Below, piece after piece: positions 43,724-46,920 of a stretch of DNA of 64,000 bases. The DNA is from a phage. The stretch's first letter is position 1. Each line of letters starts with the position of its first letter. The notes beneath the pieces were generated by a model. It had not been told where the DNA came from. It saw nothing but the letters and a program-made list of their open reading frames with translations, and searched no databases. Where the stretch lies: sequence record OM867527.1; one strand, written 5' to 3'. Both the position numbers and the translations under genes were made by a program.

Positions 43724-43937
43724 AGTTGTTTACGCAGTAGATAGCAAAAGCTATCCATCCCGCTATTACAAAGCAGCCTAGTGAGTATGCTCCATAATAG
43801 CAGTAAGCAAACTTAGACTTGTGGGCACGGACTATCGTAGCCAGAGCCAGTACGGATAAAACTATCAGTATTAACTGAAAGATTATTTCAAAAGTGATTA
43901 GCATAGTTGCTACCTCCAAAGAAAAAATAAGCCTCAC
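43722..43937 (-). CDS. Small membrane protein (up to 71 aa)
   Basis: Two hydrophobic helices. True start may be the internal Met, since the first codons overlap a terminator hairpin. Confidence 0.35.
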   Translation of the reverse strand: MRLIFSLEVATMLITFEIIFQLILIVLSVLALATIVRAHKSKFAYCYYGAYSLGCFVIAGWIAFAIYCVNN

Positions 43938-43954
43938 TCCCGAAGGAATGAGGC
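43921..43954 (-). terminator. Rho-independent terminator (minus strand) after RNAP II large subunit
   Basis: Minus-strand reading: AGCCTCA-loop-TGAGGCT followed by TATTTTTTCTTTG. Confidence 0.5.
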
Positions 43955-43961
43955 TAGTTTA

Positions 43962-45179
43962 TTAACTTAATGCATAGTCTGTTTCAAGAATGTCCTGCCA
44001 GAGGCTGTCATCCAGCTTACCAGCAGAGAACTCTTGCCCCAGTACCTGAGACAGAATGAAGCCCAGCAGGTCACTCTTAGCAATGTCAGACAGAATCTGA
44101 TTGTACTGACGACGTAAGTCGTTACCGTAGTTAGGATGGCAACGGAAGCAGTCATGTACAGTCATTACAGGGAATGGCTTCTTAGGCAAAGTATTGAGCA
44201 TAGTTAAGATTACATCTGTATCTACCAATGCAATGGTTTCTGAATCCAGGTAATCAAAGATACGGGTAGACAGGAATCCAGACTTCTTATAACTAGTCCA
44301 TAATGTATTAACCATTTCATGGCTAGCACCTGGGACAACTATGTATTCACTGGTTCCCTCACAGAGGGACTTAATATAGTTCACCTGGTTCATGTTGAAG
44401 TTACAACGACGCAGCATCTCACGTACCACCATTCCATCAATAGAGTGAGTGATGTTAGCAGAGAGCATACGGGTCTTTTCTTCAGTACCCTGAACCATAC
44501 GAGTGATGTCGAATGGCTTACCTAAGAAGTTAACAGTCTGTACCTCTGGAACCATGACCTTAATGACAGCATGGAAGTTGTCAGGCAGTACCCATATGTA
44601 ACGGTTGGCATCAGGGTTACCACATTGCAGTAAGAACTTGTTGAGTGCCCAAGGACCACTAGCAACAGTTTCCATTACATTCTCAAAAGTCTTGAGACGA
44701 ATACCTTCACCGAATACCTCTTTAGGCTTGGCTTCTGAGCCGTAGAATGCAGTCATAACAGCCTGCTTAGTGTCACTACGTTTAATACGTGATGCTTCAC
44801 CAAGGATGTCCAGCATCTTATGATAGATGACTGTATAAGCATCACGGCGTAATGGTTTACCATTCTCACCCATGTAATTAACTACGTTACACAGTTCAGC
44901 AGCAGAACGGTCACCGGTCAGACAGGCCAGTAACTGCAAGCCTGATGATGTAGCATCCAGAGCTACGGCATAGCCAATAGGCTTACCTGCTTTCATATCT
45001 TTCCATGCGTTTACACCAGCAAAGAACAGAGCAGAATCTTCAGCTTCATCTACCAGATTAAGCAGGTTAGCTTCGTTCTCATCGAACCAGGCAATACGTT
45101 CATCCCATGTCTTCTTATCTAAGCCATAGTTATTAGCAATATCTACTTTCAGGTATTCTTTAGCGGTTAACAGTTGCAT
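43962..45179 (-). CDS. Phage RNA polymerase II, large (catalytic C-terminal) subunit, T7-like
   Basis: Motif B RSDTKQAVMTAFYGS (RxxxKxxxxxxxYG), motif C TVHDCF, and C-terminus ILETDYALS comparable to the T7 RNAP C-terminus. Size (405 aa) matches the N4 RNAP II large subunit. Confidence 0.8.
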   Translation of the reverse strand: MQLLTAKEYLKVDIANNYGLDKKTWDERIAWFDENEANLLNLVDEAEDSALFFAGVNAWKDMKAGKPIGYAVALDATSSGLQLLACLTGDRSAAELCNVVNYMGENGKPLRRDAYTVIYHKMLDILGEASRIKRSDTKQAVMTAFYGSEAKPKEVFGEGIRLKTFENVMETVASGPWALNKFLLQCGNPDANRYIWVLPDNFHAVIKVMVPEVQTVNFLGKPFDITRMVQGTEEKTRMLSANITHSIDGMVVREMLRRCNFNMNQVNYIKSLCEGTSEYIVVPGASHEMVNTLWTSYKKSGFLSTRIFDYLDSETIALVDTDVILTMLNTLPKKPFPVMTVHDCFRCHPNYGNDLRRQYNQILSDIAKSDLLGFILSQVLGQEFSAGKLDDSLWQDILETDYALS

Positions 45180-45236
45180 TTTATGTTCCTTTTGCTTCTT
45201 GGCTCCCCACTATGAAGAGCCTGCTTATTGGGATTA

Positions 45237-45851
45237 TTACTTCCAGGCCCACTTAAAGCCTTTGTATGTTTTGGGGTTATAAATATGACCTCTGCCATCC
45301 TTCACAGGGATACCATTGGCTACCGTTATAATACCCCACGTTCTACCACTTACATGGCGTGCAGCATCTGCTGTAGTAACAAATTCTTTATAGAATGTAC
45401 CGTCTAGGTGATAGGCGATAACAGGTTGTGCAGTGGCAATGTTACCTTCTTTCTTGCTACGTGCTCCTTTATCCCTATTCTCTTTCCAGGACATTAGTTG
45501 AATGTTATCCAGAGTATATGGTTTTTGGTCATCTATACGGTCTACAGATGGTTTATAGTCTTTTGCATAGTCACTCGCTACATAATCATCCCATAGTTGA
45601 TGAATATTTGGTTGTTTATCCAACCATTCATAGAAATCTTCTAGTGAATAGTTGGGTGGTGGGTGTCCTCTTTTAATAGAGTGAGATAGTTGAGTTAGAT
45701 AAGTCTTCCTGAACATACATACCGGGTCGGCTTTGTTATACCTCAAAGTCCGACATTTACGGCACCGTACCTCATAACCGTCTTTGCAGGTTGATTTTGG
45801 TACGAACTCTGTGAGGTCTTTTGTTTCCCCACAGTCCTTGCAGATTTTCAT
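45237..45851 (-). CDS. HNH homing endonuclease with N-terminal zinc finger and C-terminal NUMOD-like DNA-binding region
   Basis: CKDCG...CRKCR zinc ribbon; HNH-type core SVDRIDDQKPYTLDNIQLMSWKENRDKG; C-terminal helix AARHVSGRTWGII. ATG overlaps the stop of the upstream RNAP II small-subunit gene. Confidence 0.65.
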   Translation of the reverse strand: MKICKDCGETKDLTEFVPKSTCKDGYEVRCRKCRTLRYNKADPVCMFRKTYLTQLSHSIKRGHPPPNYSLEDFYEWLDKQPNIHQLWDDYVASDYAKDYKPSVDRIDDQKPYTLDNIQLMSWKENRDKGARSKKEGNIATAQPVIAYHLDGTFYKEFVTTADAARHVSGRTWGIITVANGIPVKDGRGHIYNPKTYKGFKWAWK

Positions 45852-46666
45852 TAGTCCTCCACGAGTTCTTTATGTGCGAACTCTATTACTGCCTTATTCC
45901 ATGAAGTACCCGCATAATTAATATGGTAACCACAGGCATATGTACGCCCACGTTTGTCATATTTGTGAGCCAGAGAGAAATTATTACCTTCTTTGGTCAC
46001 TAACTCCATTACTTCCTTAGCTGTACGACTGTATTTCTCAAAGGCTTTGACTCGTTTCTCATATTCCTGACGGGTTTCACCTTCTTTTGGTTTATCCATG
46101 TTAGGACGAGAGTCTTTTACGTAGTTAGCAACGTCCCAGTTAATGCAGAGACGTTGATTGTTCATACGGTTGATGTGGTCAAGACAGACATCCATCTCAT
46201 GATGGTTCTTCTTGAGGATGATGCTACCCCTGCTTTCGTAGTAACCAGTATCACGGTTACATTTAACAGGCTTAGGAGCACTTACGATAGGCAATGGATA
46301 CTGGAATGCTTCTAGTTCCATCTGTACATCTTCACTAATCTCATAGATAACACCGAACTTGTCGATGGTAGGGTCATAGTTGAAGCAGTCATTCTCTGCC
46401 ATCTTATACAGACAGTCAGCGATGTACTGAGCATCATCTGAGTGACTCATAAGAGAGCCAATCATAGTCTGAATGTCAGCACGTTTATGTAGGGCAATCT
46501 GCACCATTGCATCAATGAGCAGCTTATAATCAATTTCCAAATAGGCAGCGAATGCCTTAAAGTCAATTTCTTCGGAGTCCTCGAATTCCTTCCTCATGCG
46601 AGGGAGTAATTGATTCTTGTTGAAAAGGATTTCAAGTCGCTTCTGATGTTCAATAGATGAGTACAT
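45851..46666 (-). CDS. Phage RNA polymerase II, small (N-terminal-like) subunit, T7-like
   Basis: KYDKRGRTYACGYHINYAGTSWNKA resembles the T7 RNAP segment DWRGRVYAV...NPQGNDMTKG. Size (271 aa) and position match the N4 RNAP II small subunit. Confidence 0.7.
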   Translation of the reverse strand: MYSSIEHQKRLEILFNKNQLLPRMRKEFEDSEEIDFKAFAAYLEIDYKLLIDAMVQIALHKRADIQTMIGSLMSHSDDAQYIADCLYKMAENDCFNYDPTIDKFGVIYEISEDVQMELEAFQYPLPIVSAPKPVKCNRDTGYYESRGSIILKKNHHEMDVCLDHINRMNNQRLCINWDVANYVKDSRPNMDKPKEGETRQEYEKRVKAFEKYSRTAKEVMELVTKEGNNFSLAHKYDKRGRTYACGYHINYAGTSWNKAVIEFAHKELVED

Positions 46667-46686
46667 CGCATATTCTCCTAATTAAT

Positions 46687-46920
46687 TTAAACAATACTTG
46701 CTATTAGAGTCCTAGTTTTATGTTCACTAGCACATCGGTAATACATTCTTATGTAGTTTCCATGGAAGTTATGTCTCCATGCCCACGGGAAGGGTAGTTC
46801 TACTTCACACCAGTTATTAGGGCTTTCATATGCCCCTTTAACTGCTTCTTTAATCTTTGGATAATTACCCCATTTATGTTTATGTTTCTTAGCTATGATT
46901 TGCTGAATTGATACCGACAT
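46687..46920 (-). CDS. Hypothetical early protein (77 aa)
   Basis: Short reverse ORF in a tightly packed early array. Confidence 0.35.
   Translation of the reverse strand: MSVSIQQIIAKKHKHKWGNYPKIKEAVKGAYESPNNWCEVELPFPWAWRHNFHGNYIRMYYRCASEHKTRTLIASIV

Follow-up and report, generated by a model that had tools for sequence, protein, structure and literature searches.

A putative selfish homing endonuclease gene with a PacI-like core between the RNA polymerase II subunit genes of an N4-like phage

Why does an N4-like phage carry a nuclease gene between the genes for the two subunits of its middle RNA polymerase, RNA polymerase II (RNAP II), in the middle of an essential operon, and is this gene a selfish invader, a working part of the operon or a remnant? 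The window considered here is the whole 64,000-nucleotide stretch of phage sequence record OM867527.1. Over positions 43900-46700 its sequence and that of Escherichia phage HK2 (PP514361.1), an N4-like phage classified in Schitoviridae, Enquatrovirinae, Gamaleyavirus, are 100% identical, and the product of the 204-aa ORF in question is identical to the HK2 CDS WYA83887.1, which carries the GenBank label "endonuclease". The gene is called HEG-A below and its product the HK2 protein. The features of the locus, in the order in which they are read on the minus strand, are as follows.

45851..46666, minus strand: RNAP II small-subunit gene, homologue of N4 gp15, 271 aa (PHROG 2166, "N4-like RNA polymerase", E 4.5e-115)
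45851..45913, minus strand: recoded 3' end of the small-subunit gene, the predicted altered target region, marked by a drop in nucleotide identity
45849..45860, minus strand: coupling junction GGAGGACTAATG, read directly from the sequence, with the Shine-Dalgarno within the final small-subunit codons
45237..45851, minus strand: HEG-A, putative free-standing homing endonuclease gene, ATG start, 204 aa plus stop (ORF call)
45180..45236, minus strand: conserved spacer of 57 nt with a hairpin at 45201..45221, forming the downstream edge of the variable cassette
43962..45179, minus strand: RNAP II large-subunit gene, homologue of N4 gp16, 405 aa (PHROG 2051, E 7.6e-176)
43930..43955, minus strand: strong intrinsic terminator ending the small subunit-endonuclease-large subunit unit, with an 11-bp stem and then a run of T

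The two flanking genes are 65% (small subunit, to gp15) and 69% (large subunit, to gp16) identical to their N4 counterparts at the amino acid level, and the large subunit also gives a Pfam RNA_pol match with an E of 1e-14. HEG-A lies exactly between these two PHROG-assigned genes, as the first-pass annotation of this DNA had claimed from the sequence alone, and the adjacency of the two subunit genes in N4, which it had also stated, is confirmed: gp15 and gp16 are separated there by a 47-nt gap and the slot is empty. The translational coupling to the upstream subunit that it had also proposed can be read directly from the junction, where the small-subunit stop TAA (45853..45851) and the HEG-A ATG (45851..45849) share one base (TAATG) and a GGAGG at 45860..45856 lies 4 nt upstream of this overlap, within the coding end of the small-subunit gene. 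A terminator scan of the coding strand gave none within HEG-A or at its two junctions with the subunit genes; apart from the terminator after the large-subunit gene, the minus strand has a single candidate, a weak 6-bp stem (46367..46351) inside the small-subunit gene. Scanning the coding strand for sigma-70 promoters was uninformative. As judged from the sequence, HEG-A is transcribed as part of the RNAP II operon and translationally coupled to the small-subunit gene.

The spacer hairpin, GGCUCUUCA-UAG-UGGGGAGCC, has a 9-bp stem and a 3-nt loop and closely precedes the ribosome-binding site of the large-subunit gene; folding of the 76-nt stretch does not differ significantly from that of shuffled sequences (z -1.1). 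In HK2 the hairpin carries a C-to-U change with pairing maintained as G-U. Among the aligned variants the 57-nt spacer is present in HK2, pSb-1, PhAPEC7, Bp4, and 24-32N, and it is replaced by the cassette in G7C. An Rfam search of 43800-46800 returned no match at E<=1, group I introns included, and because no intron-like RNA was found HEG-A is regarded as free-standing. A group I intron context, of the kind described for g16 in phages N4G2 and Sz33, is ruled out by the same search. The rest of the window was searched for further members of the HEG-A family and none was found.

When the locus was compared across N4-like relatives, HEG-A was found in only 3 of the 59 related phage records that match it, namely HK2 and the two accessions of Shigella phage pSb-1, whose protein is 96% identical to that of HK2; elsewhere the slot holds other contents or none. 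Within the genus there are at least seven contents for this one slot. Three of them are nuclease genes, two of which (HEG-A and the G7C type) are distantly related to each other while the third, in UE-S5a, is an unrelated canonical HNH_3+AP2 endonuclease. The G7C ORF15.1-type slot, present in seven records, encodes a 193-aa relative from the same D-R-Y-N-N family, with 33-35% identity to the HK2 protein. A 53-aa ORF that overlaps the small-subunit end occupies the slot in 24 records (Bp4, PhAPEC7, and others), 24-32N has this 53-aa ORF plus a 79-aa ORF, PBM-3 has the 79-aa ORF by itself, and E20 has ORFs of 38 and 80 aa. A six-frame hmmsearch with all filters off detected no HEG-A remnants in the endonuclease-free slots, and an origin of the 53-aa and 79-aa ORFs by decay of HEG-A is therefore rejected. 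The first-pass annotation had described HEG-A as inserted; alternative cassette is the better description.

Other variation was seen around the same genes. Directly upstream of the small-subunit gene lies a second variable slot (46687..46920, minus strand), which holds a 77-aa ORF in HK2 and in which HK2 is 94-100% identical to 24-32N and ~40-60% identical to pSb-1, G7C, PhAPEC7, and Bp4. In L013, a metagenomic Gamaleyavirus-like contig, a further HNH_3+AP2 endonuclease gene (1228-1704) is located directly upstream of the small-subunit gene, besides the endonuclease downstream of it. The large-subunit gene has two allele classes with <60% nucleotide identity at ~44190..44400 (aa ~261-330), one shared by HK2, 24-32N, PhAPEC7, and G7C and the other by Bp4 and pSb-1; HK2 and pSb-1 share the endonuclease and differ here, which indicates recombination ~800 nt downstream. 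In the pSb-1 record a 1-nt frameshift divides the large-subunit gene into two annotated CDS. In other N4-like phages a second endonuclease gene breaks up the large RNAP II gene, at 5223-5771 in L006 (pVco-5), 911-1438 in L019 (XC38), and 4968-6674 in L010, which leaves the polymerase of pVco-5, XC38, and L010 in three pieces.

A close examination of the small-subunit gene in carriers and non-carriers identified a change that is linked to the cassette. Over its first 747 nt HK2 is 92-96% identical to the endonuclease-free phages, while over the last 57 aligned nt before a terminal indel the identity falls to 61-65%, with changes that are mostly synonymous. The variable segment has its upstream edge ~63 nt into the small-subunit gene and its downstream edge at the HEG-A stop codon. 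All five carriers (HK2, pSb-1, and the metagenomic L011, L012, and L013) end the small subunit in ...ELVED*, whereas the non-carriers end in ...ELVN(E/D)(D/E)*, which is one codon longer. The junction string GTGGAGGACTAATGAAAA, which provides both the Shine-Dalgarno and the overlapping start, is kept in HK2, pSb-1, L011, L012, and L013, and each of the other cassette types has its own version of the small-subunit tail. Such a linked recoded flank would be the expected pattern if the target were at the junction and the gene moved together with a flank that is immune to cleavage.

The rates of change suggest that the gene is both functional and mobile. Between HK2 and pSb-1 the dN/dS of HEG-A is 0.069, comparable to that of the flanking polymerase genes, and purifying selection of this strength indicates a functional gene; dS for the same pair is 0.27 in HEG-A and 0.36 in the flanking small-subunit gene. 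The subunits of L011 and L013 share 92-96% identity with those of HK2, but the endonuclease is only 76% and 71% identical, respectively, and its synonymous sites are saturated (pS 0.72-0.76, against 0.26-0.35 in the flanks). The opposite relation is seen in the distant L010, where the endonuclease is 49% identical and the subunits 28% and 38%, and L008 combines 58% identity in the endonuclease with 53% in each subunit. The divergence of HEG-A thus does not track that of its flanking genes, which points to horizontal movement. The endonuclease gene directly follows the small-subunit gene in L008, L010, L011, L013, and Vibrio phage pVco-5, and distant family members (~30-37% identity) are present at other loci in phages rV5, VBP47, MIF8, and XC38.

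What kind of nuclease is encoded is less obvious than the annotation implies. The HK2 protein matches PHROG 1035 ("endonuclease VII") along its full length with an E of 4.5e-33, and its AlphaFold2 (AF2) model has a mean pLDDT of 92. Alignments of 29 and 42 sequences were made from the 56 homologues found, and three modules can be distinguished in the protein.

45753..45842, minus strand: N-terminal Cys4 zinc ribbon, aa 4-33 (CKDC...CRKC), from conservation in homologues
45462..45551, minus strand: predicted beta-beta-alpha-metal nuclease core without the His, aa 101-130, PSVDRIDDQKPYTLDNIQLMSWKENRDKGA, from the model and conservation
45240..45434, minus strand: predicted C-terminal NUMOD/helix-turn-helix DNA-binding tail, aa ~140-204, from profile alignment to I-HmuI 54-162

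Scans of the HK2 protein against Pfam and NCBIfam gave no significant match and no nuclease family, so the nuclease assignment rests on PHROGs, profiles, and structure. Pfam HNH, HNH_3, and Endonuclease_7 do not match the HK2 protein; HNH matches just one of 29 relatives (E 0.013), and Endonuclease_7 is absent from the HK2 protein and from all 29 relatives at E<=0.1. The T4 endonuclease VII identity given in the pSb-1 record and in the label of PHROG 1035 is rejected on that ground. Other PHROGs labelled endonuclease VII, the full-length PHROG 1035 apart, match the N-terminal zinc-ribbon region only.

In the AF2 model the nuclease core consists of two strands (101-105 and 117-121) and a helix (122-135), which gives the beta-beta-alpha fold with Asp and Asn at the metal-binding positions. 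The alignments of 29 and 42 homologues show no variation at D104, Y112, N116, and N125 and at least 90% conservation of R105, with PSVDRxDDxxPYTLDNIQLMTWxEN as the core motif of the family. The position of the catalytic His is occupied by Arg105 in HK2, which aligns in the family profile with the His of I-HmuI VDHKDGN. An exhaustive profile search returned 1,763 clusters at 50% identity with E<=1e-30, from which 204 proteins were sampled and scored for the motif P[STA]xD-x-x6-Y-x3-N-[IVLM]-x7-(N/H). It is present in 196 of them, 194 having both the Arg and the final Asn; a His stands in place of the Arg in one of the 196, and the last Asn is replaced by His in one. With Arg in 195 of the 196 motif-matching sampled proteins, a recent inactivating mutation as the origin of Arg105 is ruled out. 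The family member with His for Arg105 is the downstream endonuclease copy of L013. Having the beta-beta-alpha fold and lacking the His, the protein belongs to the HNH/His-Me superfamily by fold and is neither a canonical HNH enzyme nor a T4 endonuclease VII. The first-pass label "HNH" therefore survives in part: the fold is there and so is some of the motif, while the Pfam HNH and HNH_3 matches and the His are missing.

The zinc ribbon that the first-pass annotation had read from the sequence is conserved, with C4, C7, and C30 invariant and C33 at least 90% conserved across 42 homologues, and with CxxC...CxxC in 180 of the 204 sampled family members. The NUMOD-like C-terminus it had proposed is supported indirectly, through the relatives and the profile alignment to I-HmuI. 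Pfam, searched for HNH_3 and NUMOD domains, finds NUMOD1 in 14 and I-HmuI_NUMOD-like in 11 of 29 relatives, and the HK2 protein itself matches neither. Three long proteins, P0058 (1122 aa), P0062 (1044 aa), and P0153 (894 aa), matched the family profile in 10-13 separate stretches each; the best-scoring one in each lies in the C-terminal tail, the D-R-Y-N-N core motif is absent, and the proteins resemble arrays of NUMOD-like DNA-binding repeats.

Comparison of the family profile with PDB sequences placed I-HmuI (1U3E) first, with an E of 0.0026, and gave PacI at a marginal E of 0.087 over the full length; with the N-terminal module alone PacI came out on top, again marginally (E 0.039). The aligned PacI segment, 90-GVDRSDSFEGYSPQNARLACFICNRIKS in residue numbers deduced from the profile alignment, pairs with the HK2 family core SVDRIDDQKPYTLDNIQLMSWKENRDKG, so that HK2 SVDRIDDQKPYTLDN...N is aligned with PacI GVDRSDSFEGYSPQN...N, and the N-terminal Cys-rich segments also align. 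PacI is a beta-beta-alpha-metal enzyme without a catalytic His, in which Asp and Asn hold the metal and a loop Tyr between the strands takes the role of the His as proposed general base or nucleophile (PMC5714182, PMC4081073). As the general-base His is absent from the HK2 protein, its nuclease activity rests on the analogy with PacI. By that analogy we infer a PacI-type active site, with Asp104 and Asn125 as metal ligands, Asn116 in a structural role, and Tyr112 replacing the His. Taken as a whole, the HK2 protein is best described, from its alignments, as a PacI-type nuclease module joined to an I-HmuI-type DNA-binding tail.

Together, the sporadic presence of the gene, the alternative occupants of its slot, the linked flank, and the divergence that does not follow the neighbors support a homing endonuclease, and we consider it probable, at roughly three chances in four, that HEG-A is a selfish free-standing homing endonuclease gene at the RNAP II gene junction with a PacI-type core. 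The first-pass annotation had arrived at a free-standing homing endonuclease as well, and the distribution, the slot contents, the linked flank, and the lack of intron RNA all argue for that proposal. The NUMOD/helix-turn-helix tail would bind an extended, asymmetric DNA site, as I-HmuI does, and the protein would cut or nick the matching junction in co-infecting relatives without the gene. Judging from the divergence pattern, the cut site probably lies in the last ~60 nt of the relative's small-subunit gene or at the start of its slot occupant. Recombinational repair from an HK2-type genome would then copy the endonuclease gene together with the recoded small-subunit end, and this end would render the carriers immune to cleavage. 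In the active site Asp104 and Asn125 would hold the metal and Asn116 would brace the loop, in which Tyr112 may act as base or nucleophile and take over the role of the missing His.

Three other readings are less well supported than the homing endonuclease. An active nuclease might serve mainly in competition between phages, cutting co-infecting relatives to exclude their markers or degrading foreign DNA. The fold and motif evidence suits such a role just as it suits homing, three different nucleases compete for the one slot in the genus, and a precedent is available in T4, where the seg and mob genes cause marker exclusion. Sequence data cannot separate this function from homing, but the linked recoded flank looks like a product of gene conversion from a carrier, a process that copies the gene itself, and we regard competition as the main function as improbable. 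More improbable again is a domestication in which the protein no longer cuts and acts as a DNA-binding factor beneficial to the phage, for example as a regulator or accessory of RNAP II expression or promoter use. The lack of the canonical catalytic His would be explained, as would the tight translational coupling within the polymerase operon, the strong purifying selection (dN/dS 0.07), and the constant position after the small-subunit gene in phages with subunits only 28-53% identical; moreover, the His-Me superfamily includes DNA-binding members without catalysis, such as SMAD MH1 (PMC5714182). However, phages can do without the gene: in most Gamaleyaviruses and in N4 the slot lacks it or holds unrelated ORFs, and the Asp, Asn, and loop Tyr, the residues that make PacI active, are kept in 194 of the 204 sampled proteins. 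The signs of horizontal movement in its divergence speak against domestication too.

They also bear on the least probable of the three, that HEG-A is an old Gamaleyavirus gene which was lost or replaced in most lineages and persists as a relic, possibly inactive, and not as an invader. The presence of relatives at 46-76% identity in the same position of diverse N4-like contigs would fit this history, and so would the HK2/pSb-1 pair, in which the endonuclease dS is near that of the small subunit and compatible with vertical descent. Yet within the genus the synonymous divergence of the endonuclease is saturated and that of the flanks is not, the endonuclease-free slots hold no remnants of the gene, and the strong purifying selection is hard to reconcile with decay. 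We thus return to the selfish homing endonuclease as the preferred reading.

Much of the setting is already known: the gene is annotated in GenBank, and endonucleases between these two genes were published in 2017. Amgarten et al. described a "G7C-type" RNAP organization, with nucleases and anywhere from none to eight genes separating RNAP1 and RNAP2, and proposed that a homing endonuclease split an ancestral single-subunit T7-like polymerase (PMC5418858). A 2019 preprint reported that g16 of the G7C-like phages N4G2 and Sz33 contains a group I intron that is spliced and carries a homing endonuclease, and that a mobile insertion has divided the DNA polymerase in G7C-like phages (bioRxiv 10.1101/542787). 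Given the G7C annotation and this literature, HEG-A represents one more allele lineage in a phenomenon already described. The additions made here are that the nuclease family lacks the His and resembles PacI, that at least seven contents, three of them nucleases, compete for the slot within one genus, and that a linked recoded flank likely marks the target region.

The locus provides a natural example of several cassettes, some selfish and others not, in competition for a single junction within an essential operon. Each cassette brings its own form of the neighboring coding sequence, and this bears on the origin of mosaicism and on the choice of phylogenetic markers. The published proposal that the two-subunit N4 polymerase arose through homing endonucleases gains further data here. 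In enzymology, the locus draws attention to a large family with a conserved D-R-Y-N-N center to which the names HNH and endonuclease VII are wrongly applied, and members of which might yield new long-site nicking or cutting enzymes. A broader and more tentative reading, to which we give somewhat less than even odds, is that a large family of phage homing endonucleases labelled "HNH" or "endonuclease VII", comprising at least 1,763 clusters at 50% identity (E<=1e-30), really uses a His-less PacI-type site with an I-HmuI/MobE-type tail. If Tyr112 were the general base or a covalent nucleophile, these enzymes would form a distinct catalytic class of homing endonuclease, and PacI would then seem to descend from a mobile-element nuclease.

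Among known systems the closest is G7C ORF15.1 (YP_004782142.1, "putative HNH homing endonuclease"), which is in the same genus and the same slot and belongs to the same family as HEG-A, with an A2 profile E of 9e-54, the D-R..Y..N motif, and a NUMOD1 tail. The two cassettes differ in their boundaries, that of G7C abutting the large-subunit start at the place where HK2 keeps its spacer, and the recoded small-subunit end of G7C is a different version from that of HK2. With 33-35% identity, another boundary, and another recoded end, HK2 and pSb-1 carry an allele lineage separate from that of G7C. The tail of the G7C-type paralogue matches T-even MobE with ~40% identity over aa 122-189, and in tblastn it is the tail alone that matches, the MobE nuclease domain giving no alignment. 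T4 MobE, a free-standing HNH homing endonuclease whose gene is located between nrdA and nrdB, is like HEG-A in that both genes sit between the subunit genes of one essential enzyme; the host gene pair is a different one and the protein likeness is to the tail of the G7C-type paralogue.

I-HmuI, the HNH nicking homing endonuclease of Bacillus phage SPO1, is aligned in the profile with the tail of the HK2 family. The Asp-Arg of HK2 corresponds to a canonical Asp-His pair (VDHKDGN) in I-HmuI, which has no N-terminal zinc ribbon and is encoded within a group I intron, unlike the free-standing HK2 gene. PacI (PDB 3LDY/3M7K; His-Me finger group 20) has an N-terminal Cys4 followed by a VDRxDxxxxYxxxN...N core, as in HK2, and the PacI-like features of the HK2 protein are the replaced His, the loop Tyr (Y112), and Asp and Asn at the metal-ligand positions. 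The second Cys4 site that PacI has within its core is missing in HK2, where LMSW/LMTW aligns with the CFIC of PacI, and of the two Cys4 sites per subunit only one conserved set (C4, C7, C30, C33) was found in the HK2 family. The HK2 protein has in addition an inserted helical segment (aa ~40-95) and the predicted NUMOD/helix-turn-helix tail. PacI is a homodimeric restriction enzyme of 142 aa that recognizes the 8-bp palindrome TTAATTAA, whereas the tail of the HK2 protein is typical of monomeric homing enzymes.
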